Below, one piece after another: positions 7,333 to 60,640 of a stretch of 62,985 bases of DNA. The translations under genes and the position numbers were made by a program. The stretch lies in the NCBI GenBank assembly GCA_001303705.1, contig LJUI01000007.1, positions 1-62,985 on the forward strand, read 5' to 3'. The stretch comes from a candidate division TA06 bacterium SM23_40 (GTDB taxonomy: Bacteria; LJUI01; SM1-40). Every line of letters starts with the position of its first letter. Within the stretch, counting starts at the first letter, position 1. The notes beneath the pieces were generated by a model. The model did no database searches and was not told where the DNA came from. It worked only from the letters and a program-made list of their open reading frames with translations.

Positions 7333-7509
7333 CCTGCGCCCTCTCTCCCGGAGTCGGCAGGAGCGTACATCAAGATCCCGGCCGCATTCCCGGGTGCGAT
7401 CTACCCCTCTGAATCACTCCACCCAGGTGCAGATCGAACACCGCACACGGCGGAGCCGCACACAGAATGCCCCAATCCTATGCCGTTCTCCTGGGCCAGT
7501 ACATGTGAA

Positions 7510-7538
7510 TTGACAGGCCCGAACAAGGATGGTAACAT
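7510..7538 (+). promoter_or_regulatory. sigma70-type promoter candidate TTGACA-N17-TAACAT for the giant regulator
   Basis: TTGACA at 7510-7515, a 17-nt spacer, TAACAT at 7533-7538. It overlaps the track start codon at 7529, which argues for the ATG at 7598. Confidence 0.5.
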
Positions 7539-7597
7539 GGCGAGGAGCGAGTAAATCGATTGCTGCACCCTGCATCGGTCAGCATACGGAGCGCACT

Positions 7598-10500
7598 ATG
7601 GAACGGCCGGTCATCAATAACCGGTATGAAATGCTGGAGAAAATGGGCGAAGGGGGGAGCGGAGAGGTCTATCGGGTGAGGGATCTGCTCAAGGAGCGCA
7701 CCGTGGCCCTCAAGATGCTCTCGCGCCTCGGCGGGGCGGGCGAGCGCTATCTGCGCTTCAGGCACGAGTTCAGGACCATGACCAGGCTCCGCCATCCTCA
7801 CATCGTCGAGGTGTACGACTTCGGCGTCACCCAGGATGACATTCCCTTCTTCACCATGGAGCACATAGCCGGCGGGACTATCACAGAGTACCTGGCTCGT
7901 GTCGGCCTCGAGTACCCGACCCTGGCAATGCTGCTCACCCAGATCTGCCAGACCCTCGAATACATACACGGCAAGGGGCTGGTCCACGGCGACATCAAGC
8001 CCGGCAACATCCTCGTACAGGAGGGAGAGACACCTGCTGTCAAGCTCATGGACTTTGGCCTGGCAGCACGGATAGCCGATCTCGCCCGGGCCGGGGTCAC
8101 GGAGACAGCGCAGACCGGTCTCCTCGCCGGTACGCTCGAATACATCGCACCCGAGATCGCCCGGGGCCGGTATGCCGACCGCCGCACCGACCTGTACTCG
8201 CTGGGGGTCGTGCTCTACGAGATCGCCACGGGCATCTGCCCGTTCAGGGGAGACAGCCCGGTCTCTCTCATTCGCCAGCACCTCGAGACCGCCCCCATAC
8301 CTCCCAGCGAGCAGGTGGAAGAAGTCGATACAGAACTCGAAGAGATCATTCTCCGGCTCCTGGAGAAGCGACCCTCGCACCGCTTCCAGTCTGCTGCAGA
8401 GTTGATGAATCGGCTGCTCAGCATCGGTGATGAGGAATTGGCGGTCCTTCCTCTCCCTTCTGATCACATCATGAGTGCGGAGTTCGTGGGCCGCGAGGAA
8501 GAACTGCGTGCTCTCCAGTCCGTACTCGAAGAGGCGACAGGTGGGGCGGGAAGAACAGTTCTTGTCGAAGGTGAAGTCGGCGTTGGAAAATCACGCCTCG
8601 TCGAGGAGTTCAAATTCAACGCTCAGCTCGAGCGGGCCGCAACCCTGGAAGCGACCTGCTTTCAGGGACAGAGAGAACTCCACGGTGCGGTGCGCGACAT
8701 CATACTGCAGGCAGTTGGACTTGTCGAACCGAGAAATCCAGACCTCGTATACCAGCATGCGAGAGCGCTCATCAGGTTCGTTCCCGAACTCCGCGAGAAA
8801 CCCTATCTAGCCTACATCGAGGAGCCGCCCGAGCTCGAGCCAGCGCAGGAGCGGCTCCGTTTCCTCGACGATGCCGCCCGCTTCCTCTCGGCGGCATCAC
8901 ACCACCAGCCACTCGTAGTCTTCATCGACAATCTCCACCTCGCAGACAGGATGACCGTCGAGTTCGTGCGCTACCTTGCGAGAAACGTGAAGCGGAACCG
9001 TATCTTGCTCTGCGCCACGTACAGAAAAGGAGAGCTCCCCCTCGCTGACGAAAGCGAACGAGGGACTCGTGTGGCTCAGCTCATCTCGTGGCTCGCCGAG
9101 CGCACTGACGTCCGGGAGATCACACTGGAGCGCATGCGGAAGGACGAGATCAAGGTTCTCATCAGCACCCTGCTTGGAGCTGCCGACCCTCCGGCCGAGC
9201 TCGCCGGCTTTCTCTTCGAGCGCACCGGAGGAAACCCACTCTTCTGCGTCGAGATGCTTCGATCCATGGTCGAAGAAGGCCTGCTCGTGCGTCGGAACCA
9301 TCAGTGGCAGTTCTCCAGGCCCGGCGTGCCCGCCGTTCCCCGCACGGTACGGACGATAATAGGCCGACGTCTCGAGCGTCTTGATAGGACACGAAAGGAG
9401 ATCGTTGAGGCGATAGCGATTGCCAGGAAGGACATTGAGGTAGAGACACTCCGCGAGATGGTAGGGCGCGATGAAGAAGAGCTTCTCGACTGCCTCCACG
9501 AACTCGTGCGAGTAGGCATAGTCGAGGAGAGGAGGCCCGATGCCTCGATCACCTATCAGTTCGCCCACGCCCTGCTCAAGCAGACAGTGTACGAAAGCAT
9601 CTCCGAAGACGCAAGACGCGAACTGCACGGAAGACTTGCACATCTCCTAAGGGCGGCGTGTGGCGACGATGAGGCTTTTGCCGGCGACCTCGCCTATCAC
9701 TTCCACAATGGAGGCGATATAGAGGAAGCGCTCCACTACTCCCGCGTTGCTGCAACACGCGCGGCGAACGCCTACGCAAACGAGGAGGCAATCGAGCACT
9801 ACAGCCGCATCCTCGCCCTGCTCGGCGATGACGGGGACGAGTATCGGCTCGAGATCCTCCTCACGTTGGGAGAACTTTACGATGTGACCGGGTGCTATAA
9901 CGAGGCAGTGAAGACCAACGAAGATGCGCTCGCTCTTGCCAAGCGCCTGAAGGCTCCACCAGCGACGGTGGCCGACATCCACCGCCGCCTGGGTCACATC
10001 TGGTTCCAACAGGGACAGTACGAGCAGGCCCACAGAGCCCTCCGGAAGGGGATCCAGCGGCTCGGAGCGAAGAGCGAGACACCGGAGATGGCTCGTCTGC
10101 GGAACGAGATCGGGTGGATATACGTGCGCCAGGGCGAACACGAGAAGGCAATCGAAAGTTGTCTCAAAGGACTCCGGCTCGTCGAGGCTACCGACCACTT
10201 CTATGAGCTCGCCCAGTCCCAGAATCTGCTCGGCGTGATCTATCTCAACAAAGGCGACTACGAGCGCGCGACGAGATATCATCTCGAGGCGCTCGAACTG
10301 AGGGAGAAGGTTGGAGCACGACGCGACGTGGGGGGATCATACATCAACCTCGGGGTCTGCGCCTCGAGAGCAGCAAGATGGGAGGAGGCGGCCGACTACT
10401 ATCGAAAGGGTCTGAAGATCATGCAGGAGGTGGGCGCTGTCCGCGGCATCGCGATTCTCCTCGACAATCTCGGCAATCTCGCGAGCCGGAGAGGCGAACT

Positions 10501-13021
10501 GGACCAGGCCCTCGATTACTCGCTTCAGGCGCTGGAGATCGCCGAACGAATCGGGGACCGCCAGGGGATCGCGCGTCTCTACAACAACCTCGGTTTGACA
10601 TGCGAACGGCGGGGAGAGTATGAACGGGCTCTTGAGTTCCAGATGAAAGGGCTGGAGCTGCGGCAGGCAATGGGGGATTCGAGAGGGACCGTGATCGGAC
10701 TGCACAACTTGGGGTCGATCCAGATGAGAATGGGCTCGTGGGATCAGGCACGCGAAACGCTGCTCCAGGGGCTCGCCATGAGCAAGGATGTTGGAGAACC
10801 TGGCGTGGCGGTCGCGTGTTCCCTGCTCCTCGGTCAACTCCACCACCGGATGGGCGCCTGGGACGATGCGCTCGACCACTACCTCAGTGTCATCCGCGAT
10901 TGCGTGCGAATGAAGGACCTGCTCAGAGAGGCCAACGCCTCAGGACTCCTCGGCCTGCTGCACCTCGACCGAGGCGACACTGAGGCGGCACAACCTCTGT
11001 TCACCCGTCAACTGGAGGTCGCCGAAAAGGTCGGCGCTCGCGACGAGCTCGTCGCCGCCCACATTGGTCTCGCACAGTACCACCTGGCCCGAGGCGAGGA
11101 TGACGAGGCAAACCGTCTGGCCCTGAAAGCGGTGGATGTATCCCGCCAGATCGGCATTCCTGTACTCAAGGGTGAGGCGCTCACCGTCGCAGCCACAACA
11201 TGGAGTGCGCTCGGGGAGAGGGAGCAGGCCCGTGAAGCGTTCGATGAGGCCATTGAGCTTCTGCAGTCGACCGGCGCACCGTACGAGCACTCCCGCGCAC
11301 TGGCTGCCTCGGGATGGGACAGGATAGATGCCGGGGAGACAGAACGAGGGTGGGAAGATCTCGGAGAGGCCGAGACTATTTTCCTGAAGCTCGGTGCAGC
11401 ACGAGAAGCGTCGAAAATCTGGGATGGCGTGAAGGGCGCCGACGATTCCTACGTCTCGAAGCTTCGTAAGGAGGGGAAGGAGCTCGCGACCCTCTACCGG
11501 ATCAGCCAGGTTATGAACTCAATCCTCGATCTCGATCGCTTGCTTGACAAGGTCATGGATCTCGTCGTCGAGACAATGCGTGCAGAGCGCGGCGTCCTGA
11601 TGCTCCTCGACAGTCAGACTGGCACTCTCGACGTACGGGTCGCGCGCAATATGGATCGGGCTACGATCGAGGATGCGCGTAACATCAGTCTCGGAATCAT
11701 CAGAGATGTGGCACGACGCGGACAACCCGTCGTTACTGCAGATGCCCAGACCGATGCCCAGTTCAAGGAGCGGGAGAGCGTCGTTCTGTACGGCATCAGA
11801 TCGCTACTCTGCGTTCCCCTCAAGATCCGGGGAGAGATCGTCGGCACGATCTATCTCGACAACCGACGCGCGTCCGACATGTTCGGCCCGGACGATGTCG
11901 AGTTCCTTACGGCGTTCGCCAACCAAGCTGCCATCGCGCTCGAGAATGCGCGTATCTATGTGGAGCTCAAGGAGGCCAAAGAGCGTCTGGACCAGGAGAA
12001 CATTGCTCTCCGCAAGGAGGTAGTGGGCCGCTATCGGTTCGAGAACATCGTCGGCCGAAGTGCGAGGATGGAGGAAGTATACGATCTCGTAGAGAAAGTG
12101 TGCCAGAGCCGAGCCAACGTACTCATCTTCGGGGAGAGCGGCACAGGCAAGGAACTTATCGCCAAGACGATCCACTATCACGGCCCGCGCGCCCAGGGGC
12201 CGTTCGTCCAGATCAACTGCGCTGCCCTGCCCGAGACCCTGCTGGAGAGCGAACTCTTCGGCATCGAGCGGGGAACGGCAACCGGTGTCGACCGCCGGAT
12301 CGGGAAGTTCGAACAAGCAGACGGAGGAACGCTCTTCCTCGACGAGATCGGCGATATGAGCCCTGCCGTCCAGGCCAAGGTGCTGCGCGTATTACAGGAG
12401 CGGGAATTCGAGCGCGTGGGCGGGCGAAAGACCGTCTCGGTCGATGTCAGGATCATCGCCGCAACGAATAAGGATCTGGAACGCCTGGTGAAGGATGGGA
12501 CCTTCCGTGAGGATCTGTACTACCGTCTCAACGTGGTGCCGATCATCATTCCTCCCCTGCGCCAGCGGCGGGACGACATACCGGAGCTTGCAGATCACTT
12601 TCTCATGCGATTTGCTGCGGAGAACGACCGGGAACTCACCGGCATCTCACCCGCCGCCATGCGCCTCCTTATGTCCTACGACTGGCCGGGGAACGTGCGC
12701 GAATTGGAGAATGCAATCGAGCGAGCCGTGGTGATCGAGTGCGAAACAGCCATCGCTCCTGAGAGCCTGCCCCAGGCTGTGGTCCAGGCCGTGGAGGCGC
12801 CAAGGACCGAGCCGACCGAAGAAGATCTGCACCATATGGATTACCGGAAGGCGAAAGAGGTGCTCATCGATCGATTCGATCGCGACTACCTGGAGGATCT
12901 TCTCTTCCGTAACTGCGGCAACATATCCCAGTCCGCCCGGGAGGCAGGTATGGACAGACGAAATCTCCAGACCAAGCTGAAGCGGTACGGGATCGATCCA
13001 GAGAAGTTCCGCAGGCAATAG
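7598..13021 (+). CDS. 1,807-aa chimeric regulator: Ser/Thr protein kinase + P-loop (AAA_16/STAND-like) NTPase + TPR array + GAF + sigma54-interaction AAA+ + Fis-type HTH
   Basis: ATG 7598 with GGAG upstream. Kinase motifs: [26 protein letters not shown]-loop [10 protein letters not shown] (about 8569-8598). TPR-like repeats span about 9.7-11.4 kb and GAF about 11.48-11.96 kb. The AAA+ domain (12038-12733) has [19 protein letters not shown] and [36 protein letters not shown] lies at about 12916-12990. Confidence 0.9.
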
Positions 13022-13464: not shown

Positions 13465-13480
13465 TGGCACAGGTCTTGCT
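13465..13480 (+). promoter_or_regulatory. sigma54 (-24/-12) promoter TGGCAC-N5-TTGCT
   Basis: TGGCACaggtcTTGCT is an exact match to the TGGCAC-N5-TTGCW consensus. It sits in a non-coding gap about 220 nt upstream of ATG 13702, immediately downstream of a sigma54-type activator gene. Confidence 0.75.
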
Positions 13481-17079: not shown

Positions 17080-17095
17080 TGGCACGGTGCTTGCT
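17080..17095 (+). promoter_or_regulatory. sigma54 (-24/-12) promoter TGGCAC-N5-TTGCT
   Basis: TGGCACggtgcTTGCT is an exact consensus match, located in non-coding DNA. The next plus-strand gene starts at 17511. Confidence 0.7.
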
Positions 17096-17510: not shown

Positions 17511-19310
17511 ATGATCGAGGTACGCGATCTCCATTTTTCCTACCGATATGCCGGTGGATCGATCGATGCCCTTCGCGGCATCACGCTCACCGTCGACCAT
17601 GGCGAGTTCGTCGCCGTAATGGGCCCCAACGGCTCCGGGAAATCGACACTCGCCCTCTGCCTCAACGGCATCCTCACCCCGACCTCGGGCGCGGTCATGA
17701 TCGACGGAGAGGATTCAGGTGCACCTGGCATGCGCTGGAAGATCAGACGAACGATAGGCCTCGTCTTCCAGAATCCGGACAACCAGTTCATCACGTCCAC
17801 TGTAGAACGAGAGATCGCCTTCGGCTTAGAGAACCTGGGCCTCCCCTCACGCGACATCCGCGACCGTGTCGAGAGGACTATGGCCGCGTTCTCTCTCGAA
17901 CGGTATCGCCACACTGCTCCACACAACCTCTCTGGCGGCGAAAAGCAGAAGGTGGCGTGTGCTGCGGTGGTGGCGATGGAACCGAAGTGGATCATCCTCG
18001 ATGAGCCCGCCGCCTTGCTCGATCGCCGCGGAGAGGATCAGGTCTTCCAACAGATAGAGCGTCTGCGCGATCTCGGTGTGGGAGTGATCCTCATCACCCA
18101 GAATGTCCGGGAGGCACTCTCGGCAGAGAGGCTCGTCCTCCTCGACAGGGGGCACGTCAGTGCCGACCGTACTCCTCCGTCGTTTGAGCCGGGAGAGGGG
18201 CTTGAATCGCTGCCTGCGGTACGCCTGGCCACACAACTGAAGCAGAACGGTATTGGCATCAGTGACCTCCCGGTGACGCCACAGGCTCTCACAGATGAGC
18301 TCCATCGGGCCTACGGTAATCGTTCCTTTGAGATCAGGGTCTCTGAGGCAGATCATCCCGGTCCGGCGAGCCCGTCTCCAGCGCTCGCGCTCTCGATGCC
18401 CCCTCAGCCGACCGGTACGTCTTCCGACACAACCGGGGCAGGCGCGACCCCGCGTTCGCCTGAACAAGCGCTCATTGAGATGCAGGATGTCGATTTCTCC
18501 TACCGGCACGGACTTCAAACGGAACGCCCCGCACTCTGCGACGTGGACCTCAGGATCGGCGCCGGCGATTCCTTCGCCCTCGTCGGCCCGACAGGTTCAG
18601 GGAAGAGCACCCTCGCGCTCCACCTGAACGCGCTCCTCAGGCCGGATCGCGGTCGGGTATTCGTACAAGGAGAGCCGTTGACCAATGGCAAAGGGAGGCT
18701 GGCTGAGGTGAGGCAATTTGTCGGGGTCGCCCTCCAGTACCCTGAAGATCAGTTCTTTCTCGACACTGTATTCGATGAGCTCGCGTTCGGCCCCAGGAAT
18801 TTCGGTCTCTCAGAGTCAGAGCTGCCCAACCTGGTGGCCGAAGCGCTGACTATGGTCGGACTCGACCCCGATCAGTTCTCTTCGCGCTCCCCGTTTACTC
18901 TCTCCTATGGTGAGGCGAGGAGGGCGGCGCTGGCGGCGGTGCTCTCGTGGAAACCGGACGTCCTCGTTCTCGACGAACCCACGGCCGGGCTCGATGCTCA
19001 GGGGCGAGGAGCGATCGTTCAGCTCATGCGATCTCTCGGCGCCGCAGGGCGGACAGTCATCATCATCTCTCATGACGTTGACCTTGCACTCGAGGAATGT
19101 ACAAGCGCCGGCATACTGGATCAGGGCAAGCTCGTACGGGCTGGGCCGCCGGGCACACTGGTAGCTGATGATCTCCTGTTACAGGTTGGACTGGCCCTCC
19201 CCGAGGTGACCCAGGTCATGCGGCACCTCAACGCTCTCGGATGGCCTGTCTCCGGTGCTGTCGCCTCGGTCAGTCACGCCTGCGCCGAGATCCTCGGCGC
19301 CCTCTCGTGA
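17511..19310 (+). CDS. Fused tandem ABC ATPase of the energy-coupling-factor (EcfA-EcfA') type
   Basis: Two complete ABC cassettes (GPNGSGKST...LSGGEKQKV...ILDEP and GPTGSGKST...LSYGEARRA...VLDEP) joined by a Pro/Ser/Thr-rich linker. ATG 17511 is preferred over TTG 17508. No EcfT or S-component gene follows. Confidence 0.85.
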   Translation: MIEVRDLHFSYRYAGGSIDALRGITLTVDHGEFVAVMGPNGSGKSTLALCLNGILTPTSGAVMIDGEDSGAPGMRWKIRRTIGLVFQNPDNQFITSTVEREIAFGLENLGLPSRDIRDRVERTMAAFSLERYRHTAPHNLSGGEKQKVACAAVVAMEPKWIILDEPAALLDRRGEDQVFQQIERLRDLGVGVILITQNVREALSAERLVLLDRGHVSADRTPPSFEPGEGLESLPAVRLATQLKQNGIGISDLPVTPQALTDELHRAYGNRSFEIRVSEADHPGPASPSPALALSMPPQPTGTSSDTTGAGATPRSPEQALIEMQDVDFSYRHGLQTERPALCDVDLRIGAGDSFALVGPTGSGKSTLALHLNALLRPDRGRVFVQGEPLTNGKGRLAEVRQFVGVALQYPEDQFFLDTVFDELAFGPRNFGLSESELPNLVAEALTMVGLDPDQFSSRSPFTLSYGEARRAALAAVLSWKPDVLVLDEPTAGLDAQGRGAIVQLMRSLGAAGRTVIIISHDVDLALEECTSAGILDQGKLVRAGPPGTLVADDLLLQVGLALPEVTQVMRHLNALGWPVSGAVASVSHACAEILGALS

Positions 19311-19351
19311 ACGCGTTCGGCCGCACCTCTCATGTATGAACCTGGAGGCTC

Positions 19352-19380
19352 TTGTGCAGTGCCACGATAGGCACTACGAT
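19352..19380 (+). promoter_or_regulatory. sigma70-type promoter candidate TTGTGC-N17-TACGAT with embedded 6-6-6 palindrome
   Basis: The spacer contains AGTGCCacgataGGCACT (19358-19375). The element lies about 115 nt upstream of ATG 19495. Confidence 0.35.
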
Positions 19381-19494
19381 ATTCAAGACTCGAACCCGAT
19401 CGGCGCTGAGTGCCAGGGGTTGCCCCGCAGTGGGTTTTGGGGACATATTGTCGTATGGGCGCGCCGAGGCTGGTCCGGACGTAGAGGGTATACC

Positions 19495-21576
19495 ATGAGC
19501 AGGTCTCTCCTCGCGATTACGCTGCTGCTGGCGCCAACGATCGCCCTTCCCCAGACAGCACGCATCACCATCGATACCGCTACCGATCTAGGGGCGGTGA
19601 ACAAAAACGTTCTGGGCACCAACATCTCGGTCCATTTGCCTGAGTATTACATGCTGAATCTGATGCCTCAGGGGAAAATGCAAGACCTCAGGCCCACCGT
19701 TGTGAGGTGGCCTGGAGGCAACGCAGCCTGCGAGTACAACTGGAAGATCGACGGAGATTTTCGAGACACCCTCGGCGCAGAATACGGACTGAATATCGTC
19801 GACATCGCCCAGGTCTGTGAGACGATAGGTGCGGAGCTCCTGATAGTAGCCAATTTCGGGACGATGAATGCAGAGGATGCCGCCGACTTCGTAGAGTTCT
19901 GCAACGGTCCAGTGACCTCTGAGTGGGGACACGTGAGAGATTCGCTCGGGATTCCCGAACCACTCAATGTACAGTACTGGGAGATCGGCAACGCGCTCTA
20001 TGATGAAGAGATGTGGCATTACTGCTGGACCGCCCAAGATCCGAGGAAGTACTACTTCGGCGGAAGCGAAGAGAGGAGGGGAAGCCTTTCTCCGTTTCCC
20101 GCCTTTCCCGCGGCAAAGGGCGACCTGCTCGTGAGCGATGGCTCGCCGAATCAGCGGATCGTGATCCGCTTCCCCGATGTCGTGGAGGGCTCAGACACTC
20201 TCTGGGTGGGCCCTGATACTTCCAGTCTCGAGCCATGGACACGGATCGAGAATCTCGGCGAGGTTCAGGAGGGGAACTACTACCAGATGGACTACGAGAA
20301 CGATGTCGTCACACTCGGCAACGGCAGGCACGGAAACATCCCCGAGTCAGGCCACATCGTACTCTGTGAATACACCACCACCAACCATGATGGCTATGTC
20401 GATTTTGCCGATGCAATGAAATCCGTCGATCCCACGATCAGGATCGGCATCTGCCTGGACCCCGACCCGACCTGGAGCCAGGATACCATCGAAACGGTAC
20501 TGGACCGGATCGACTTCTACTCAATGCACCAATACCGCCAGGAAGATACCACATTCCCTGGCGAATATCTGCAGCGAATCCGCGCTCCGACAAGATACCT
20601 CAGGTTGGCGCATGAAAAGAGAAAGGCTATCGACGAATGGGCCGGCCCCCATGCCGAGGGGATCGGCCTCGCCATCACTGAATGGAATTGGATGCTCTGG
20701 AGGCACACCCGCGCCACTCCGCTGGCAAACGTGAGCCTGGCCAATGCACTCGTCTCCGCAGAGGTGCTGGGGAGACTGAGCACAGAGGCTGACAGCCTCC
20801 ATCTGGTCGTGGCAAACCACTTCTGTGCCGCCACCGCCTGGGACCTAGGCTACCTCGCCCTCATAAGCCACGAGTACACGCGGCGGCCCGCCTTCTATGC
20901 GTTCATGTTCTTCAACGACTACTTCGGGGAACGACTCGTGCACCGCGAGGTCGAAACGGACTGGTACGTTGCCGGGAACGACACAGTGCCCCTGGTGACG
21001 GCCTTTACGAGCACGAGCCTCTCCGGCGATACGCTCCATCTTATCGCCATCAACAAGCACGACACCCTTGACTACGAGACGGAGATCGAGATCTCCGGCT
21101 TCGAGCCTGATTCGATCGCCTTTGTGTACACCCTCAATGGAGATAGCGTGTACGCGACGAACGAGGAGGACTCAGCGAATATCACCATCCAGGACACCCT
21201 GATCACATATGCCTCGGAAAACTTCACCTACACGCTCCCAGCACATTCCCTGACTGCGATAGCCTTTCTGAATCGCCACATGGGCGAGGACAGCATCACT
21301 TCCTATCAATTGCAGCAGAACGCGCCAAATCCATTCGCGTCCTCTACGACGTTCGACTATGCGATCCCGGAGCCGGGCCCTGTCGAGCTCAGGGCGTACA
21401 ACCTCCTCGGCCAGCGGGTGAAGACGTTCCACAATGGCGGGATGCAGCCCGGCCGGTATACGATGACGTGGGACGGCAGGGGAGACGATGGCATAAAGGT
21501 GGCGTCGGGTGTCTACTTCATCGTGTTGCGGGCAGGGGATCTCGTCGTCGCAAAGAAGGTGCTGCTAGTGCGGTAA
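19495..21576 (+). CDS. Secreted clan GH-A glycoside hydrolase (alpha-L-arabinofuranosidase-like) with FlgD-like/T9SS-type C-terminal domain
   Basis: The internal ATG 19495 gives signal peptide MSRSLLAITLLLAPTIALPQ. Motifs VRWPGGNAACEYNW, YWEIGNALY (acid/base Glu) and ITEWNW (nucleophile Glu). Tail reads QNAPNPFASSTTFDYAIPEPGPVELRAYNLLGQRV...WDGRGDDGIKVASGVYF. Confidence 0.75.
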   Translation: MSRSLLAITLLLAPTIALPQTARITIDTATDLGAVNKNVLGTNISVHLPEYYMLNLMPQGKMQDLRPTVVRWPGGNAACEYNWKIDGDFRDTLGAEYGLNIVDIAQVCETIGAELLIVANFGTMNAEDAADFVEFCNGPVTSEWGHVRDSLGIPEPLNVQYWEIGNALYDEEMWHYCWTAQDPRKYYFGGSEERRGSLSPFPAFPAAKGDLLVSDGSPNQRIVIRFPDVVEGSDTLWVGPDTSSLEPWTRIENLGEVQEGNYYQMDYENDVVTLGNGRHGNIPESGHIVLCEYTTTNHDGYVDFADAMKSVDPTIRIGICLDPDPTWSQDTIETVLDRIDFYSMHQYRQEDTTFPGEYLQRIRAPTRYLRLAHEKRKAIDEWAGPHAEGIGLAITEWNWMLWRHTRATPLANVSLANALVSAEVLGRLSTEADSLHLVVANHFCAATAWDLGYLALISHEYTRRPAFYAFMFFNDYFGERLVHREVETDWYVAGNDTVPLVTAFTSTSLSGDTLHLIAINKHDTLDYETEIEISGFEPDSIAFVYTLNGDSVYATNEEDSANITIQDTLITYASENFTYTLPAHSLTAIAFLNRHMGEDSITSYQLQQNAPNPFASSTTFDYAIPEPGPVELRAYNLLGQRVKTFHNGGMQPGRYTMTWDGRGDDGIKVASGVYFIVLRAGDLVVAKKVLLVR

Positions 21577-42567: not shown

Positions 42568-44766
42568 ATGATCAGCCTCAGAATCGGTAGACGAGATCCC
42601 CTGCCCCAGAGAGAACGGCACAAGCTGGGGGCGTTTATCGGGGTGTTCACGCCCTCGATCCTCACTATACTCGGCGTCATCATGTATCTCCGATTCGGCT
42701 GGGTCGTGGGAAATGTGGGCCTCGTTGGCGCCCTGGTCATCGTCGTAATCGCCAACCTGATCACGCTCATCACTGCCCTGTCCGTCTCGGCCGTAGCCTC
42801 CAACATGGACGTGGGCGTCGGTGGTGCATACTATCTCATCTCCCGGAGTCTGGGGCTCGAGATCGGCGCAGCCATCGGACTCCCACTCTATCTCTCTCAG
42901 GCCTTATCCGTAACACTGTATAGCTTTGGTCTCGCCGAATCGCTCCGCATCGTCTGGCCGGAGGTCCCGCTCCAGCCGACAACGCTCGTCGTCATCTTTG
43001 CGGTCACCCTCCTCTCTACCAGGGGGGCATCGATTGCCCTCAGGTCGCAGCTGCCGGTCATGGCAGCGATAGGCCTCTCCCTCGCCGTCTTCTTCGTCGG
43101 AGGGAGCTCGGGCGGCCATGTCCCGGGTTCCTTTCTCGACGTGGGCGGCCCGCTCGGCTTCTGGGCGGTGTTCGCCGTCTTCTTCCCGGCAGTCACCGGT
43201 ATCATGGCCGGAGTGAGTCTCTCTGGCGATTTGAGAGACCCGCAGAAGTCGATCGCCAGGGGGATCATCGCCGCTGTACTCGTTGGCTTCGCCGTCTACC
43301 TGCTCGTGCCCATAGTGCTCGCATTCAATGCTGACCGCGAATCACTGATTCGCGATAGCCTCGTATGGACCAAGATCGCCATCTGGCCGGCGCTCATCTT
43401 CCCCGGACTGTGGGGTGCGATCCTTTCCTCGGCAGTGGGGAGCATCCTCGGGGCGCCGAGAACTCTCCAGGCCCTGGCCATGGATCGCGTTGCCCCTCGA
43501 TTCCTCGGGAGGGCGTCCGCCAGGGGCGCCGGGCCGCTCGCCGCCATCCTCTTCTCAGGTGCCATCGCCATGGCGGCCGTCGGACTGGGAAACCTCAACG
43601 CGGTCGCCCGGGTCCTGACTATGTTCTTCCTCACCACCTACGGGATGATCAATCTCGTGGCAGGACTGGAGAAACTGGTGGGGGATCCGTCGTACCGGCC
43701 CACGTTCAACATCCCCTGGTGGGTCTCGTTCGCCGGGGCATTCGGCTGTCTCGCCGCAATGTGGCTGATGCATCCCCTGGCATGTGTGGCGGCGATCGTG
43801 ATAGAGCTCAGTCTCTGGCTGGCCCTGCGGCGGCGTGCAGTCAAGGCAACGTGGGGGGATCTGCGGCGCGGGCTATGGATGGCGGGACTGAGATATGCAT
43901 TGATCAGACTCAAGGGCACGCCTGAGGATCCCCGTAACTGGCGCCCCAACATCCTCGTTTTCGCCGGCGAGGTCGAGAGACGACCGGAACTCGTGAGATT
44001 TGCCTCCTGGTTCAGCCAGAATAGGGGAATCGTCACGGTCTGCGATCTCATAGAGGGCGACTTGGTGGAGGGCGACATTGCTATCGACGAACGCCGGGAA
44101 CAGATGAACCAGTTCCTGGATGTCAGAGGGTACCTGGCCTTTGGCGAGGTTCATGTCGTCCACGATTTCGAGGACGGAGTCGTAAGCGTCTCCCAGGCGA
44201 ATGGGATTGCCGGAGTGGCATCGAATACGCTGATGTTCGGCTGGAGCCGGGATCACGAGCGAATGGCATCATACTTCCGGATCATGCGCCAGGTGTCGAG
44301 ACTCCACAAATCGATGATCCTCCTGAGACACAATCCCAGAAACATGCTCGCGCGCACAAAGCACATCGACATCTGGTGGGGCGGCCTGCAGCAAAACGGA
44401 GATCTGATGCTCCTTCTCGCCCACCTCCTCTCCCTCAATCACGAGTGGAGCAACGCCAAGATCACCATCAAGAGCATCGCCTCGAATGAGCTAGTGCAGG
44501 CCGAGACCGAACGGCGTCTCGCCGTCATGATCCCCCAAGTCCGCATCAAGGCCGAACAGAAGGTACGACTCAGATCAGACGACCGCCCGGTCATCGACAC
44601 CATCCATGAAGAATCACGCGATGCGGAGGTAGTCTTTCTCGGTCTGGCACAGCCAGACCCCGGGGAGGAAGCCGAATACGCCGGACGGCTCGCCAAGATG
44701 ATGGAGGGCCTCCCCACTGTCGTACTCGTCAAGAACTCCAGCATGTTCGCCGGCGACCTCGTCTAA
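42568..44766 (+). CDS. APC-superfamily permease of the cation-chloride cotransporter (SLC12-like) type with a large cytosolic C-terminal domain
   Basis: About 12 predicted TM helices (FIGVFTPSILTILGVIMYLRFGWVVG...) followed by a soluble domain of about 270 aa. Confidence 0.75.
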   Translation: MISLRIGRRDPLPQRERHKLGAFIGVFTPSILTILGVIMYLRFGWVVGNVGLVGALVIVVIANLITLITALSVSAVASNMDVGVGGAYYLISRSLGLEIGAAIGLPLYLSQALSVTLYSFGLAESLRIVWPEVPLQPTTLVVIFAVTLLSTRGASIALRSQLPVMAAIGLSLAVFFVGGSSGGHVPGSFLDVGGPLGFWAVFAVFFPAVTGIMAGVSLSGDLRDPQKSIARGIIAAVLVGFAVYLLVPIVLAFNADRESLIRDSLVWTKIAIWPALIFPGLWGAILSSAVGSILGAPRTLQALAMDRVAPRFLGRASARGAGPLAAILFSGAIAMAAVGLGNLNAVARVLTMFFLTTYGMINLVAGLEKLVGDPSYRPTFNIPWWVSFAGAFGCLAAMWLMHPLACVAAIVIELSLWLALRRRAVKATWGDLRRGLWMAGLRYALIRLKGTPEDPRNWRPNILVFAGEVERRPELVRFASWFSQNRGIVTVCDLIEGDLVEGDIAIDERREQMNQFLDVRGYLAFGEVHVVHDFEDGVVSVSQANGIAGVASNTLMFGWSRDHERMASYFRIMRQVSRLHKSMILLRHNPRNMLARTKHIDIWWGGLQQNGDLMLLLAHLLSLNHEWSNAKITIKSIASNELVQAETERRLAVMIPQVRIKAEQKVRLRSDDRPVIDTIHEESRDAEVVFLGLAQPDPGEEAEYAGRLAKMMEGLPTVVLVKNSSMFAGDLV

Positions 44767-44794
44767 CGGGGACGTTGGTAGGTTCAGAAGGTTA
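44767..44794. repeat. Left arm of 28-bp perfect inverted repeat
   Basis: CGGGGACGTTGGTAGGTTCAGAAGGTTA. It begins 1 nt after the TAA stop at 44764-44766 and is the exact reverse complement of 45087-45114. Confidence 0.95.
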
Positions 44795-44993
44795 TCTGCA
44801 ACGCACCTCAACTCTTAGACATCTGAGTTTCTCTCACACACCCTCCCTCGCGCTGCATCCTACCTGCTGCCCAAGACGCCGGATACCCAATCCAAATCTC
44901 GCCTTTTCTGTGCAGCTGGCCTGCGGTCTGAGCAAGGGTATCAACGTCCTATAACGCAAGAACCTCGATAGAAGGTCGAGATAGAGATTTCTT

Positions 44994-45022
44994 TTGACAG
45001 GCTGTGCCACCATACGTATACT
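44994..45022 (+). promoter_or_regulatory. Consensus-like sigma70 promoter TTGACA-N17-TATACT inside the IR-bracketed cassette
   Basis: TTGACA at 44994-44999, a 17-nt spacer, TATACT at 45017-45022. It points towards the gene at 45128. Confidence 0.6.
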
Positions 45023-45025
45023 CGA

Positions 45026-45041
45026 TGGCACTAGTGTGGCA
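45026..45041 (+). promoter_or_regulatory. sigma54-like element TGGCAC-N5-TGGCA (GG-N10-GC preserved, one mismatch in -12 box)
   Basis: TGGCACtagtgTGGCA directly follows the -10 box. No GGTGCGG palindrome was seen upstream of it. Confidence 0.3.
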
Positions 45042-45086
45042 GATAGACGGCAATAACCTTCAAGATCTAGATACGTCCCTGGTTCG

Positions 45087-45114
45087 TAACCTTCTGAACC
45101 TACCAACGTCCCCG
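45087..45114. repeat. Right arm of 28-bp perfect inverted repeat
   Basis: TAACCTTCTGAACCTACCAACGTCCCCG. It ends 13 nt before ATG 45128, and the RBS GGAAGGAGG follows immediately. Confidence 0.95.
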
Positions 45115-45127
45115 GAAGGAGGTAGAG

Positions 45128-46159
45128 ATGCGTAGTTATGTATGGGTGGTATTGGTTGCGGTTGCTGTGGGCGCCGCCCTGGGTGGGCCGGCCACAGCGC
45201 AGGTCGATACGCTGTACGCTGAGTATTTCACCGATGGTGGGTTCGATATCACCTGGGTTGCGGCATTTGAGGGAGACAACATGGATGTTACCTTCATGGC
45301 CGGTAACCCGAGTGGCGACGGATGGGTCGGATTCATCATCAACGAGATCGCCGCGCCTGTCGGCCTCACCTACTCTGGCGAAGACACGCTCGCCGACTAC
45401 AGCATCGAGGCGCAGATCTACACCCGGGTCGACACCACAATTAGCACAGGTTCGTACAACGGGATCCTCGCCCGATTCGACACGACCGAAGCAGGAACCG
45501 AGCTATATTACAGCATGGTGAGCGATTTCGATAGCGACCGTCGGCTCCGCCTCCGGCTGTACGATGGGAGCATGTTCCCCATCGTCATCCGCGACTGGGT
45601 TGGAGGCGAGATACCGGGCGGCGCGCCGACCGAGGACGGGTGGCACAAGTTCGAGCTGGCGTTCAATGCCGACACGATCTGGGCCTACTACGACGACATC
45701 GAATTGCCGGACTCCCCGTTCATCGAAGGCACCCTGCCGGCCGGCCACTTCGGCGTCTATGTCTTCAATTTCGCGGGCACCGACACAACGTACTGCGACG
45801 ATATCATCGTCACTGCTGCAGGGCCTCCGGTATCGGTGGATACAGGTCCGGACGTTCCACTCGATCTCTCGCAGGGCCTGCGTCTTCTCCCTGCAAGCCC
45901 CAATCCGTTTGTAGGATCGACGAAGATCGGATATGTCCTGCCGCCTGACGCCGTCTCCCGGCACGTGAGCCTCCGGGTCTATAACGTCGCCGGCCAGGCA
46001 GTGGCGACCCTCGTTGACCAGGAGATGGCCCCAGGGCGTCACTACGTCATATGGGATGGAAGAGACCATTCAGGCAGATCTGTCGCCAACGGCATCTACC
46101 TGGTCCATCTCGTGACCGACCGCGGCGTCGACTCAGAGAAGGTAGTGCTCGTCCGGTAG
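45128..46159 (+). CDS. Secreted LamG/concanavalin-like (DUF1080-like) protein with FlgD-like/T9SS-type C-terminal domain
   Basis: Signal peptide, then a jelly-roll-like region (YSIEAQIY...YNGILARF...WHKFELAF...GHFGVYVFN). Tail reads ASPNPFVGSTKIGYVLPPDAVSRHVSLRVYNVAGQAVATLVD...WDGRDHSGRSVANGIYLV. Confidence 0.75.
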   Translation: MRSYVWVVLVAVAVGAALGGPATAQVDTLYAEYFTDGGFDITWVAAFEGDNMDVTFMAGNPSGDGWVGFIINEIAAPVGLTYSGEDTLADYSIEAQIYTRVDTTISTGSYNGILARFDTTEAGTELYYSMVSDFDSDRRLRLRLYDGSMFPIVIRDWVGGEIPGGAPTEDGWHKFELAFNADTIWAYYDDIELPDSPFIEGTLPAGHFGVYVFNFAGTDTTYCDDIIVTAAGPPVSVDTGPDVPLDLSQGLRLLPASPNPFVGSTKIGYVLPPDAVSRHVSLRVYNVAGQAVATLVDQEMAPGRHYVIWDGRDHSGRSVANGIYLVHLVTDRGVDSEKVVLVR

Positions 46160-46220: not shown

Positions 46221-49154
46221 ATGAGATCGACTTTGCGTCGGCGCGCCGTCGATCCGGATCCCGTATTCCATAATGCCGGTGTGGGACCGGCCTCGAGGGG
46301 CAAGGGAGAGTGGTGTGCCGTGAGCCATAGGTTTGTCATCCGATCGCAGTACATCCATGCGCGCGATTCCGCATCGTGCGTTCCCCTCCTGATCCTCGTC
46401 GCATCCACGCTCTTGGTGTCGCTCCTCTCTCTCCCGTTGGCCGCGGGTGCAGCGCCCTCAGCCGGGCCCGGCGATCATGTGCCGGGCCGCCTCATCGTCA
46501 AATTTGCGGGGGGCTCCATACCAAGTGAGAGCAGCGAAGCGGACGATCGACTCTCGCCGCCCTTCGCCACTGGCATCGCCCGCCTCGATCAGCTCAACCG
46601 CACCTACGGGGTGAGCACACTCTCTAGACTCTTTCCCGGCAGCCTCCCTCCGGAGGATCAGTCGCAGGTCGATCTGTCGCGCATCTACGTCCTCCAGGCT
46701 CCGATGACAGCCCCCATAGCCGAGATGGTCCGTGAGTACAGCCGCCTTCCCGAGATCGAATACGCTGAACCACTCCCTCTCCGTCAGGCCTTCTACGTCC
46801 CCAACGACCCGCGTCTGCCAGCTCAGTGGCACCTCTGGAAGATCGATGCACGCGGGGCATGGGATATCGCCCGGGGCGACACCACGGCCATCATCGCCAT
46901 CATCGACTCGGGCGTCGCCTATGATCACCTCGATCTCGCGGCGGACATCTGGATCAACCCGGGCGAGGATCTGAACCACAACGGCATCGTCGACCCCGAG
47001 GACTTCAACGGCATCGACGACGACAGCAACTTCTTTATCGACGATATCAGGGGATGGGATTTCGTCGACATCGACTCCTCTCAGGTATGGCCCGGCGAAG
47101 ATCCCGGTCCACCCGACAACGATCCATCAGACTTCTCCGGACACGGAACCCACTGTGCCGGCATCGCGAGCGCAGCCACCGACAACGAGATCGGCGTAGC
47201 AGGCATCGGCTGGCGCTGCAGGCTCATGGTCATCAGGGCAGGATACCTCTCTATAGGCGGCCTCGGCCTGATTACGCATAGCATCGCCGGCATCTATTAT
47301 GCCGCCGAGATGGGGGCGGACGTCATAAGCATGAGCTATGGCGGTACCGGATGGAGTCAGGCAGAGCAGGACGCAGTGACCTATGCGACGCAGAACGGTA
47401 TCGTCTGTGTCGCCGCAGCAGGCAACGACAACGCCGCCAATCCGCACTACCCGGCTGCCCTCGACAGCGTAGTCGCCGTCGCTGCCACGGACACACTCGA
47501 CCTCAAGACAGACTTCTCGAACTACGGCAGCTGGATCGACGTCTCATCGCCCGGCGTCAAGATCTTGAGCACCGAGGCGAACGGCAGCTATGGCATGATG
47601 CAGGGGACATCGATGGCCTGCCCTCTCGTCGCAGGCCTTGCAGGGCTCACCGGCGCCCTTTCCCCTTCGCTGAGCCCCGAACAAGTGGCCGACCGGATCA
47701 TAACTACTGCAGATGACATTGACTCGCTCAACCCGGGCTACGCCGGACTGCTCGGGGCGGGACGCATCAACGCCGGACGTGCTGTGGACAGCGTAATCAG
47801 GATCCACTCCTACGAAGTGGACGACGGAGCCGGCAATGGCGACGGGCGGATCGATTTCGACGAACCGATCTCTCTCACGATTACACTCGTCAACAACTAC
47901 CAGTTCGTTGCCGGTATAAGCGCTACACTCTCCTCGACCTCTCCCCTCGTCACCATCACAGACGGGACCTCGGACTACGGGTTCATTCCGTACCAAGGCG
48001 TAGGAGACAATGCAGGCGATCCGTTCGAGTTCGTCGTCTCGCAGAGCACTCTCCCGTTCCTCCGTATTCCGTTCGAGCTTCTGATCAGCGCCGACGGCTG
48101 GGAGTACACCCAGCAGATCGAACTCCCTGTCGGACGCGGCACCGTGCTTGTCGTCGACGACGACGATGGCGAGAGCCAACAGCACTGGTACTACTACACC
48201 ACGGCACTCGACGAGCTCGGGATCACACCAGAGGTATGGAGCACCGACGAGAACGGAAGGGTCGGCACTGAGCTTTCACACTACCAGGCCGCTATCTGGT
48301 ATACAGGGGACGCCGACTCACAGATCCTCACACCTGACGATCAGACTGACATCGCGGCCTACCTCGACGCCGGAGGCAACCTCTTCCTCACCGGCCAGAA
48401 CATCGCACACGATCTCTCCGAGCTGGGCGGCGGCCCCGAATTCCTCACCGATTACCTGTACGCCGCGTATCTTCTCGACGACGCCAACGATGGGGGACTT
48501 GTGGGAGTGGCGGACGATCCCATAGGGGATAGCGTATCGCTCGTCATCGTAGGTTCGGGAGGGGCCGGCAATCAGGATTCGCCAGATGTTATAGAAGCAA
48601 TGCCGGGCGCGTATCCCATTCTGCTGTATGACGAGGACGAGCCTGACAGCCTGGGCGGGCTTCGCTACGAGGCGACCTGCAAGCTTGTCTACTTCTCCTT
48701 CGGGTTCGAGGGAATAAATGACGACGCCCCAGGACATACCAAACGCCACGAGCTTCTCGCCCGCATCCTGGGATGGTTCGGTCTGGTGAAGATCAGTAAG
48801 GATGACCCGGGCTCTTTCGAACGCGCTCCCCGGCTAACCCTGGGGCAAAACTACCCGAATCCGTGCAGCCGATCCACGACCATCGCCTACACCGTGCCGG
48901 CCGGAGATCGCGCCGCCCCGGGATCCTCGACAGGAGAGGCCGTCTCCAGGGTGACCCTCAAGATCCATAATCTTCTGGGCCAGCTCGTGAGAACCGCAGT
49001 CGACCAGGAGCTGCCGCCCGGCAGATATGATTTCACCTGGGATGGAACCGATACGGCCGGGCGGCGCGTGGCCAGCGGCATCTATTTCTATACCCTGAGC
49101 GTTGGAGGGGAGTCGCTTACAAAGAAAATGGTAGCCCTCCACGCGCCACGCTAG
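46221..49154 (+). CDS. Secreted S8-family subtilisin-like serine protease with FlgD-like/T9SS-type C-terminal domain
   Basis: Catalytic triad motifs IIDSGVAYDHLDL (Asp), SGHGTHCAGIA (His) and GTSMACPLVAG (Ser). Tail reads GQNYPNPCSRSTTIAYTVP...LKIHNLLGQLVRT...WDGTDTAGRRVASGIYFY. The exact start is uncertain. Confidence 0.85.
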   Translation: MRSTLRRRAVDPDPVFHNAGVGPASRGKGEWCAVSHRFVIRSQYIHARDSASCVPLLILVASTLLVSLLSLPLAAGAAPSAGPGDHVPGRLIVKFAGGSIPSESSEADDRLSPPFATGIARLDQLNRTYGVSTLSRLFPGSLPPEDQSQVDLSRIYVLQAPMTAPIAEMVREYSRLPEIEYAEPLPLRQAFYVPNDPRLPAQWHLWKIDARGAWDIARGDTTAIIAIIDSGVAYDHLDLAADIWINPGEDLNHNGIVDPEDFNGIDDDSNFFIDDIRGWDFVDIDSSQVWPGEDPGPPDNDPSDFSGHGTHCAGIASAATDNEIGVAGIGWRCRLMVIRAGYLSIGGLGLITHSIAGIYYAAEMGADVISMSYGGTGWSQAEQDAVTYATQNGIVCVAAAGNDNAANPHYPAALDSVVAVAATDTLDLKTDFSNYGSWIDVSSPGVKILSTEANGSYGMMQGTSMACPLVAGLAGLTGALSPSLSPEQVADRIITTADDIDSLNPGYAGLLGAGRINAGRAVDSVIRIHSYEVDDGAGNGDGRIDFDEPISLTITLVNNYQFVAGISATLSSTSPLVTITDGTSDYGFIPYQGVGDNAGDPFEFVVSQSTLPFLRIPFELLISADGWEYTQQIELPVGRGTVLVVDDDDGESQQHWYYYTTALDELGITPEVWSTDENGRVGTELSHYQAAIWYTGDADSQILTPDDQTDIAAYLDAGGNLFLTGQNIAHDLSELGGGPEFLTDYLYAAYLLDDANDGGLVGVADDPIGDSVSLVIVGSGGAGNQDSPDVIEAMPGAYPILLYDEDEPDSLGGLRYEATCKLVYFSFGFEGINDDAPGHTKRHELLARILGWFGLVKISKDDPGSFERAPRLTLGQNYPNPCSRSTTIAYTVPAGDRAAPGSSTGEAVSRVTLKIHNLLGQLVRTAVDQELPPGRYDFTWDGTDTAGRRVASGIYFYTLSVGGESLTKKMVALHAPR

Positions 49155-49635: not shown

Positions 49636-49664
49636 TTGACACTCCCTCCCACCCTCGATATACT
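49636..49664 (+). promoter_or_regulatory. sigma70-type promoter candidate TTGACA-N17-TATACT upstream of the MscS-family gene
   Basis: The hexamers are identical to those at 44994-45022. The spacer is 17 nt, and the site lies about 200 nt upstream of ATG 49868. Confidence 0.5.
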
Positions 49665-58728: not shown

Positions 58729-60640
58729 ATCGAGTAGGAGGGGGCCTCACGGCCCCCGTCCTCTCACACCACCGGACATACTTATCGTATCCGGCGGTTT
58801 CTTCCAGTGGGTTAACTCGACATACCTCTCGGTGAGGCTCACGAGTCCCTGCTCCCGGAACCAATCGAGCGACATCGCTTGCGCTGCCTGCGGGCTCCCT
58901 GCCAGGCGCCACCAGCCTTTGCCGGACAGGGCGAGCAACCAGGCGCGCCATTCGGGCACGCCCTGCTGTCGCAAGAAGTCCGCAATCGGCTTGGCACGCT
59001 TCCGCTGCTTGAGACGCACACAGCGCAGCCTCCGGCGAGTCCATTCATCCAACCGGGATAGGTGCTTCCGACACTCCGCATACCGGAAGTAGGTCACCCA
59101 CCCCCGCAAGAACTCGTTGAGCTCGCCGATCATCTTCCTGAGGCTTACACCTCGGTTGCGCCGTGTAATGCGCCGTATCCGATCCTTCACGCGTCTGAGA
59201 CTCTCGGGCGCTATCACCAATCGCCCACCAGGGAGAACCCGGTGGCCGAGGAACTTCCTCCTCCCTACCACGTCCACCCCGCTCTTGTCCCCGTTCACGC
59301 GCAACCGCAGCCTCTTCTCCAGAAACTGCGTTATCGAAGCCATCACTCGCTCACCTGCCGCCTGCGACCGAACGTATATGTTGCAATCGTCCGCGTAACG
59401 GCAAAACGAGTGGCCTCGCCGCTCCAGCTCCTTGTCCAGATCATCCAGCAGGAGATTCGCAAGCAGCGGAGAGAGCGGCCCGCCCTGCGGCGTCCCCTCG
59501 TGTCGCCTCACACACACCCCATCTCGCATAATCCCCGCTTCCAGGAAGCGCCGGACTATGCGCAGCAGACGCTTGTCAGCAACACGGCGGGCCAGACGGG
59601 ACATCAGCACGTCGTGGTTCACCCGATCAAAGAACTTGTCCAGATCGATGTCCACCACGATCAGACGCCCGTCAGCTACATACTCCTGCGCCTTGCGGAG
59701 CGCCTGATGGGCACTCCGCCCCGGGCGGAACCCGTAGCTCGACTCCGAAAAGGTCGGATCCAACAGCGGTTCGAGCACCTGGAGTAGCGCCTGCTGCACC
59801 AACCGGTCAACCACGGTCGGAATGCTCAATGCTCGCATCCCTCCGCCAGGCTTCGGTATCTCCACCCTGCGCACCGGCTGTGGTCGATACGTCCCGTCGA
59901 GCAACGAAGCTACGAGCTCCTCCTTGTGCTCGCTCAACCAGTCGCCCAGACCCTCGACGGTCATCCCGTCTGCGCCTGGCGCACCCTGGTTGCGCTTCAC
60001 CCTCTTATAGGCCCGGTTCAGGTTACCTCGCTTACATACCTCCTCCATCAAGGCACTCGTCAAGGCTCGTTGCTGGCCAGACGCCGTGGACACTTGCCGC
60101 TCCTCGAACGCGCTAGCTCCGGTTCCGCCTTCGCTCCCCGCGCCGTGGCGCACAGAACCCTCTACATCCCCAAACAGGTGCAGCTGGTATCCCATGCCTT
60201 GCTGCTGCTCCGTGTCCATCGAGCCTCCCAGACTGACTCCTTGCACCGGAAGATTCGGCCCTTCGTCCCGCTCAGTACACCGGGACTACTATGGCCTCTG
60301 CTGACTCCTCTCCGTCCATCCCGCTCCGTCACCAGAGCGGTAGTCCATTCCAACCGGACAGACCGAGAGGCCTCCCAGGGTAACTCACGCATCCTTCCTT
60401 CGGTGCCCGCCGGATTTACCTGCGCGCGTGCCCGGATGACTATCGGGCATCCCCGTCCCATGCCGGGTTACCCCACCGCGCCGGCCTAATATCCGGTTCC
60501 TGTTCGTCGGGCCCGAAGTGTGCCGTCCGCTTCCTTCAGATTCCGCCTCGCGACGGACACCCTTGCCTGGGCTCACGGTTCCGGTCATCACGGCCCGTAG
60601 AGGACTCTCACCTCCTCGATACATGACATGCCTGGCACAC
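58729..60640 (-). mobile_element. Bacterial class C (IIC) group II intron with intron-encoded RT/maturase
   Basis: The minus-strand 5' end reads GUGUGCCAGGCAUG...GGUGAGAGUCC...CAAGGGUGUCCGUCGCGAGGCGGAAUCUGAAGGAAGCGGACGGCA. Domain V ACCGCCGGAUACGAUAAGUAUGUCCGGUGGU carries a CGC triad. Domain VI has a bulged A 6 nt before a terminal AU at about 58729. The intron starts right after a terminator hairpin plus T5. Confidence 0.9.
58747..60246 (-). CDS. Group II intron reverse transcriptase/maturase
   Basis: RT blocks: RVEIPKPGGGMRALSIPTVVDR, FRPGRSAHQA, DIDLDKFFDRVNH, GTPQGGPLSPLLANLLL, FCRYADDCNIY. Maturase X domain: FLGH...LNEFLRGWVTYFRYA. The likely true start is ATG 60219 (GGGAGG upstream). 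Confidence 0.95.
   Translation of the reverse strand: MQGVSLGGSMDTEQQQGMGYQLHLFGDVEGSVRHGAGSEGGTGASAFEERQVSTASGQQRALTSALMEEVCKRGNLNRAYKRVKRNQGAPGADGMTVEGLGDWLSEHKEELVASLLDGTYRPQPVRRVEIPKPGGGMRALSIPTVVDRLVQQALLQVLEPLLDPTFSESSYGFRPGRSAHQALRKAQEYVADGRLIVVDIDLDKFFDRVNHDVLMSRLARRVADKRLLRIVRRFLEAGIMRDGVCVRRHEGTPQGGPLSPLLANLLLDDLDKELERRGHSFCRYADDCNIYVRSQAAGERVMASITQFLEKRLRLRVNGDKSGVDVVGRRKFLGHRVLPGGRLVIAPESLRRVKDRIRRITRRNRGVSLRKMIGELNEFLRGWVTYFRYAECRKHLSRLDEWTRRRLRCVRLKQRKRAKPIADFLRQQGVPEWRAWLLALSGKGWWRLAGSPQAAQAMSLDWFREQGLVSLTERYVELTHWKKPPDTISMSGGVRGRGP

Follow-up and report, generated by a model that had tools for sequence, protein, structure and literature searches.

Correia elements carry terminal inverted repeats of ~26-28 bp, measure 100-350 bp and are intergenic; they can lie in 5' untranslated regions (UTRs) or carry promoters. 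Their interior is conserved, they show a TA target-site duplication, and their hairpins in read-through transcripts are substrates of RNase III. The Neisseria intergenic mosaic elements (NIMEs; dRS3/RS) form mosaic arrays of short repeats downstream of genes, and the mycobacterial interspersed repetitive units (MIRUs) are units of 40-100 bp positioned across stop and start codons inside operons, without forming inverted composites. In Bacteroides fragilis, Mpi is a global invertase that acts in trans on a family of similar inverted repeats. The repetitive extragenic palindromic (REP) sequences and bacterial interspersed mosaic elements (BIMEs) of Enterobacteria, together with the REPIN-RAYT systems of Pseudomonas (REP doublets and their associated transposase), consist of short units (~20-40 nt) that are extragenic, occur in many copies and lie mostly near gene 3' ends (PMC3116915, PMC3337134). 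In invertons such as E. coli fimS and the Bacteroides capsule and fimbrial promoters, inverted repeats of 10-30 bp surround a promoter segment of a few hundred bp (PMC11602134, PMC11892184). Inverted repeats also surround many promoters that are no invertons ('inverted repeat promoters'; PMC11602134). Here we analyse a 348-bp element on contig LJUI01000007.1 of the candidate division TA06 bacterium SM23_40 (62,985 nucleotides, hereafter the window). The element is bounded by 28-bp inverted repeats and encloses a promoter that points at two genes for secreted proteins. A first, sequence-only reading had taken it for an invertible, phase-variable switch or a promoter-carrying miniature inverted-repeat transposable element (MITE).

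The window element belongs to a dispersed repeat family and is one of its ordinary composites with units facing inward. The two arms are exact reverse complements over 28/28 positions, 292 nt apart, as first described, and each is an exact copy of the most common unit of that family. We consider it probable, at roughly 0.7, that the arms are master units of an intergenic repeat family akin to REP/BIME/REPIN, dispersed but restricted to one lineage and with some MITE-like copies, and that they flank a fixed and ordinary promoter. Since the arms are copies of a dispersed intergenic repeat, the promoter is most likely fixed and not a flip-flop switch.

The arm sequence recurs at many places in the DNA of this population. 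The exact 28-mer was found in 25 further JGI metagenome stretches representing 16 distinct loci, all from the same sample series as the window locus and of the same GC content (0.58-0.62). The sequence-only reading had asked whether the 28-mer was unique or dispersed; the search was run, and uniqueness was not borne out. With a profile scan the family grew to no fewer than 86 units, grouped in 24 clusters that fall at ~17 loci; all belong to the same metagenomic population, and only three units lie in the window. Within the 63-kb window no further copy of the 28-mer was found with up to three mismatches, and 100 shuffles gave no matches. The exact 28-mer was likewise absent from 185,579 GTDB species representatives, and as a string the repeat sequence returned no papers from the literature.

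Two types of unit make up the family, 57 of type A and 29 of type B, and 28 of the A units are exact copies of the master, CGGGGACGTTGGTAGGTTCAGAAGGTTA. The B consensus is CGGGGACGTACCYAGGTTTTGAAGGTTA. The ends GGGGACGT and GAAGGTTA are common to both types, and the main difference lies in the central 5 nt (TGGTA or TACCY). Conservation of the A unit is high, with 25/28 positions at or above 90%. The units lie essentially always between genes, a few of them overlapping the last bases of an open reading frame (ORF). Of the 34 outward-facing cluster edges, those with the CGGGG end, 21 are found between -30 and +60 nt relative to the stop of an ORF in the same orientation, most of them 0-21 nt past it. 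The genes adjoining the clusters matched only housekeeping families in Pfam, and the sole gene found between inverted units encodes a cyclophilin-like protein.

Clusters are built in two ways. Purely one-directional arrays account for 13/24 clusters; units follow each other head to tail with spacers of mostly 0-16 nt, and the spacers are alike within one array, which indicates that arrays grow by duplication of a unit plus its spacer. The other 11/24 clusters carry units on both strands, fold strongly and are convergent without exception, with the GGTTA ends inward and no divergent case. These composites follow the general form A(n)B(n)> ... <B(n)A(n), with the patterns Aba, Abbba, AABBaa, AAbbaa, ABaa and AABa, and the partners are 20-259 nt apart. 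In 6/10 composites an A2 arm (..CTGTAGGTTA) is paired with an A1 arm (..CAGAAGGTTA), with 24-26/28 matches.

The window element follows the same plan. Its layout is A> ... <B <A, the pattern Aba, which recurs at locus L012 and, as Abbba, at locus L019. The B unit, a degenerate third copy of the arm placed 7 nt inside the right arm, had been missed in the sequence-only reading. The first base of the left arm directly follows the TAA stop (44764-44766) of the upstream transporter gene, and 13 nt separate the end of the right arm from the ATG at 45128, with GAAGGAGG between them; both boundaries agree with the first description. The element takes up 348 bp of the 361-bp spacer that separates the transporter gene from the two genes for proteins with type IX secretion system (T9SS) tails. 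Because it spans nearly the whole spacer, it would enclose the sigma70-type promoter of the operon as a matter of course. The interior is non-coding and more AT-rich than its flanks, as had been noted: GC content is 0.46-0.54 inside the element versus 0.58-0.65 in the flanks, and the single ORF inside it (90 aa, TTG start, minus strand) is without support. When the interior was compared with the 16 other repeat loci and with the rest of the window, only the B unit matched, and the remaining 259 bp, promoter included, are unique. A decayed B unit beside the left arm (44797-44825) was visible by eye only and was not significant. Direct reading of the flanks, ...GTCTAA on the left and GAAGGAGG on the right, revealed no direct repeat, in line with the earlier statement that no target-site duplication flanks the arms, and none was seen at the other composites.

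Copy number in the family varies, and some of its composites resemble mobile elements. At one locus (L015 3580-3610, L033 5700-6130 and L034), samples differ by unit-plus-spacer indels of 34 nt and 60 nt, showing that arrays are polymorphic within the population. The composites at L012 (907-1127) and L019 (3167-3507), which occupy different loci, share A2/A1 arms and interiors that are ~75% identical, which marks these two as MITE-like copies within the family. L021 contains two versions of a 77-nt B..a doublet that are 89% identical.

The promoter inside the element probably is real, judging from the distribution of similar sites. Sites that match the sigma70 consensus at 11/12 positions number two in the whole window against 0.1 in shuffles, and the second, also TTGACA-17-TATACT (49636-49664, +), lies upstream of an MscS-type channel gene at 49868. 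Sites with at least 10/12 matches are enriched as well (8 versus 2.2 expected), and at least three of them lie just upstream of gene starts. Enrichment together with proximity to gene starts suggests that the organism uses sigma70-consensus promoters, and the near-consensus site picked out by the sequence-only reading is retained. Its predicted transcription start falls near 45029-45031. Promoters between the arms are not a property of the family, as the window copy alone has one there (0/9 others). Of the nine other composites, five have a promoter-like site 14-48 nt beyond an outer end, among them L032 with a 12/12 match (TTGACA-16-TATAAT); throughout the nine, such sites are either external to the arms or missing. 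Sites of the same promoter type adjoin genes at other loci as well.

The overlapping sigma54-like element of the sequence-only reading is present at 45026-45040 (TGGCAC-N5-TGGC), with one mismatch; such near-matches, 6 in the window versus 2.7 expected, are not significantly enriched. On either side of the promoter's -10 hexamer stand the halves of a short dyad, GTGCCA (45004-45009) and TGGCAC (45026-45031); this dyad overlaps the sigma54-like -24 box too and could be an operator. Elsewhere in the window, perfect sigma54 -24/-12 matches (TGGCAC-N5-TTGC) occur at 13465-13479 and 17080-17094 (+), the former ~90 nt upstream of a gene for an FG-GAP/CBM96 protein. The gene at 7529-13021 (+) encodes a sigma54 activator of 1830 aa, unusually large for such a protein, with a Ser/Thr protein kinase, AAA_16, TPR, GAF and a sigma54-interaction domain.

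The orientation of the promoter is constant in the assemblies available. The transporter was found on 11 public contigs and the downstream protein on 14. Eleven assemblies (5 JGI, 3 ENA and 3 Logan) from at least nine samples cover the element. They are 99.86-99.99% identical to each other and differ by few single-nucleotide polymorphisms, and so are not copies of one assembly. The element is identical and in one orientation in 11/11 over the stretch covered; eight assemblies span it fully, and the three Logan contigs stop 1 nt short of its right end. When 44-mers across a whole arm were used, the flipped form was present in none of the retrieved contigs and the ON form in 15-18. Position 1 of the Logan contigs L007 and L010 (k=31) falls 1 nt inside the right arm, and breaks of this kind were considered as a sign of inversion and rejected. 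All 31-mers over the right arm (arm+CGA, C+arm+CG, CC+arm+C, TCC+arm) are present at other repeat loci, which explains why contigs break there; the left-junction k-mers are unique, and the left arm is crossed. The breaks in L007 and L010 also show the repeat family fragmenting assemblies of its source organism.

Predicted RNA structure separates the two kinds of cluster. The whole window element folds with a z score of -6.8, versus -0.19 for the 292-nt interior alone, so the fold is due to the arms alone. The inverted composites fold as long hairpins (z -3.7 to -10), and direct arrays give z scores of -0.3 to +1.2. A single A unit folds at -3.3 kcal/mol (z = 0.1) and has no dyad symmetry. In the predicted 5' UTR of ~98 nt, the B and A units are present as their C-rich antisense strands. 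This UTR has less structure than shuffles (z = +1.9), and its minimum-free-energy fold allows CCUUC in the B unit to pair with GAAGG in the ribosome-binding site.

These folds bear on a functional reading that is compatible with the preferred one and that we hold possible, on the doubtful side: the composites may be functional gene-boundary elements and more than selfish DNA, serving as hairpin insulators or terminators, as RNA-processing or stabilising sites that separate the end of one gene from the promoter of the next, or as arrays bound by a host protein. On this view, expression of the exoprotein operon in the window would be modulated by the two units, B and A, that lie in its 5' UTR. 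Such a role would fit the strict placement of units just past stops, with the usual order of stop, composite and promoter, the invariably convergent orientation (11 to 0), the conservation of the A unit, the long hairpins and the predicted pairing with the ribosome-binding site. It would also fit the prediction of no intrinsic terminator after the transporter gene. However, the 13/24 one-directional clusters form no hairpin and have z scores of about 0, the predicted UTR is the less structured one just described, and copy number that varies among near-identical strains suggests weak constraint.

Several known types of element were considered for the family and rejected. An origin from phages or attachment sites is not supported, since neither the exact 28-mer nor the degenerate unit pattern had a match in IMG/VR. 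The arrays are not CRISPRs, given inter-unit spacers of mostly 0-16 nt that are alike within an array. An Rfam search of the locus and five repeat-rich loci returned no family for the element or the arrays, and a structured non-coding RNA was set aside on this ground and because the interior alone has no significant fold. As to an association with tRNA genes or integration sites, only one array abuts a tRNA gene: at L011 (7159-7500), the space from a gene stop to tRNA-Leu(CAG) at 7414-7500 is taken up by seven units in the order ABAAAAB.

Under the preferred reading, the promoter would be the resident, fixed promoter of the two-gene exoprotein operon, and no dedicated recombinase would flip it. 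The repeat family would be non-autonomous, with new sites seeded in trans by a putative enzyme encoded elsewhere in the genome, and local copy number would then shift by slippage or unequal recombination. Formation of the 28-bp stem would be confined to read-through transcripts of the transporter gene, in which the stem could, speculatively and by analogy with REP and Correia hairpins, constitute a double-stranded RNA processing or stabilising site.

A number of observations weigh against this reading. The unit is not a palindrome, a defining feature of REP sequences, as the z score of the A unit indicates, and no RAYT-like ORF (HUH and YxxNP motifs) was found in the ~250 kb of this population's DNA, which is part of the genome. 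The mechanism of dispersal is inferred by analogy only, and the putative assignment of the repeat-bearing contigs to the same genome as the window comes from shared samples, GC content and the exact 28-mer. The window composite is also exceptional within its family. It alone has a perfect 28/28 arm pair (20-27/28 in the others), its interior is the longest, and no other composite encloses a promoter; this combination might be what is expected if the window copy had been co-opted as a switch. Judging by the Mpi precedent, a trans-acting global invertase would not have to lie in the window, and assemblies report the majority orientation only, with which a minority flipped population would be compatible. 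An alternative that we regard as rather unlikely is that the family is an undescribed kind of interspersed repeat, non-palindromic, with two centres and strictly convergent. It would be spread by a non-RAYT enzyme or kept as insulators, and the window copy would be a rare co-option that inverts at low frequency. Within this alternative, the A2/A1 arm pairs, which recur, resemble separate left and right termini.

A true invertible promoter, as the sequence-only reading proposed, is very unlikely. A distant site-specific recombinase or occasional RecA-dependent exchange would flip the 292 bp and so turn the two genes for T9SS-tailed exoproteins ON or OFF. Perfect arms flanking a probably real promoter that is aimed at secreted-protein genes are what such a switch would look like, the window copy is the family's only perfect pair and only promoter-enclosing composite, and the Mpi system of B. 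fragilis is a precedent for similar inverted repeats served by one distant invertase. The arms are members of a dispersed family, though, and the 28-mer is found mostly in direct arrays after stops, where there is no reason for inversion sites. None of the other inverted composites encloses a promoter, and the arm has no internal dyad symmetry. None of the 11 assemblies is flipped, none of the retrieved contigs contains an OFF junction, three Logan contigs (k=31) cross the left arm without a branch, and the breaks at the right arm are accounted for by repeat k-mers. The ~45 ORFs of the window yielded no recombinase or transposase domain, as the sequence-only reading had also remarked for recombinases. 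The interpretation as an ON/OFF switch is therefore not upheld.

The other proposal of the sequence-only reading, a promoter-carrying MITE, comes nearer to the facts and is partly right for the family, but is very unlikely for the window element. In such a MITE the whole 348-bp unit, terminal inverted repeats and promoter together, would have been transposed into the spacer as one cassette. The 28-bp terminal inverted repeats, the size, the non-coding interior, the dispersal of the 28-mer and the multi-copy MITE-like composites L012 and L019 recall such elements, but the 348-bp promoter unit does not recur: apart from the B unit, its interior has no match elsewhere in the window or at the 16 other repeat loci. 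The element has no target-site duplication, a resident promoter is the simpler explanation for an element that fills nearly the whole spacer, and no empty site was seen, the element being present in all 11 assemblies covering it.

The features of the locus are collected in Table 1. The upstream gene was confirmed as the SLC12-like transporter of the sequence-only reading. The T9SS type A sorting-domain model TIGR04183 is passed by each of the two downstream proteins, of which the second belongs to Peptidase_S8, in agreement with the earlier description; the 'LamG-like' label of the first was not confirmed, as no Pfam family matched its N-terminal part. The best non-self homologues of this first protein are 45% identical and are named in metagenome-assembled genomes (MAGs) of WOR-3. 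Overall, WOR-3, CSSED10-310 and other MAGs supply the nearest homologues, at 45-59% identity. An orthologous, repeat-free spacer was not found in these relatives: their transporter homologues are at most 59% identical, with no synteny and no units, and homologues of the downstream protein are at most 45% identical and stand in a different gene context.

Table 1. Features of the 348-bp element and its flanking genes, in window coordinates
Feature	Position	Strand	Remarks
Upstream gene, 732-aa AA_permease/SLC12-type cation-chloride cotransporter homologue	42568-44766	+	
Left arm	44767-44794	+	A-type unit, exact master 28-mer CGGGGACGTTGGTAGGTTCAGAAGGTTA; 28/28 pairing with right arm
Unique AT-richer intergenic DNA, left A unit to B unit	44795-45053		No homology to other repeat loci
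Sigma70-type promoter TTGACA-17-TATACT	44994-45022	+	11/12 match; probably real; points at the two downstream genes
Sigma54-like -24/-12 element TGGCAC-N5-TGGCA	45026-45041	+	One mismatch in -12 box; weak call
B-type unit GGGACGTATCTAGATCTTGAAGGTTA	45054-45079	-	Paired at 74%; nhmmer 19.7 bits, E 4e-4
Right arm	45087-45114	-	A-type unit, exact master 28-mer, within predicted 5' UTR
Shine-Dalgarno-like GAAGGAGG	45115-45122	+	Abuts right arm; 5 nt before ATG; direct reading
Downstream gene 1, 343-aa secreted protein, T9SS type A sorting tail (FlgD_ig/TIGR04183)	45128-46159	+	
Downstream gene 2, 977-aa subtilase (Peptidase_S8), T9SS tail	46221-49154	+	

Two further features of the window were recorded. 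C-terminal FlgD_ig or T9SS-type tails are found in four window proteins (5191-7272, 19255-21576, 45128-46159 and 46221-49154), one of which is a GH39/arabinofuranosidase-like enzyme; four such proteins suggest a secretome typical of the FCB group. A group II intron lies at 58747-60557 on the minus strand, with an ORF for a reverse transcriptase/maturase (RVT_1 and GIIM; 58747-60246) and Rfam D1-D4 domains at 60258-60557 (135 and 75 bits).

The locus carries a caution for the annotation of phase-variable switches. A perfect inverted repeat around a promoter is insufficient for such a call, and the arms must first be shown to lie outside any genome-wide repeat family. The analysis also adds a well-defined repeat family from an uncultured, phylogenetically isolated bacterium of estuary sediment. 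The family has one master sequence and units of two types under a strict orientation rule, is polymorphic in copy number and includes MITE-like composites. Families of this sort are useful strain markers, a source of assembly breaks and the raw material for occasional co-option as regulatory elements. If the non-palindromic units do have a mobilising enzyme or binding protein of their own, the family would be a modest addition to the non-autonomous elements of bacteria.

Among described systems, the closest resemblance is to REP/BIME and REPIN-RAYT. Similar to these, the window family consists of short, many-copy extragenic units mostly near gene 3' ends, has a dominant master sequence with close variants, mixes more than one unit type in mosaic clusters, folds as hairpins where doublets are inverted and amplifies units in tandem together with their flanks (PMC3116915, PMC3337134). 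Unlike in these systems, its units are mostly in direct tandem and do not alternate, and the spacing of inverted partners is variable; no RAYT gene was found in the ~250 kb surveyed, and the sequence is unrelated. With invertons the window element shares no more than its geometry, inverted repeats of the same length class around a promoter segment of a few hundred bp ahead of genes for surface or secreted proteins (PMC11602134, PMC11892184). It differs in its single orientation in all assemblies, in the lack of a nearby recombinase and in a genome-wide repeat that occurs mostly in non-invertible direct arrays. The length of the inverted repeat, the size, the intergenic site and the 5' UTR position of the window element recall Correia elements, and the mosaic arrays of the family recall NIMEs. 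In contrast to Correia elements, the window interior is unique, there is no duplication, and the promoter is not a feature of the family. The resemblance to MIRUs lies in head-to-tail intergenic units that are oriented with the flanking genes and polymorphic in copy number. The window family belongs to none of Correia, NIME and MIRU and resembles each in some respects; it is a previously undocumented member of the interspersed intergenic repeats.

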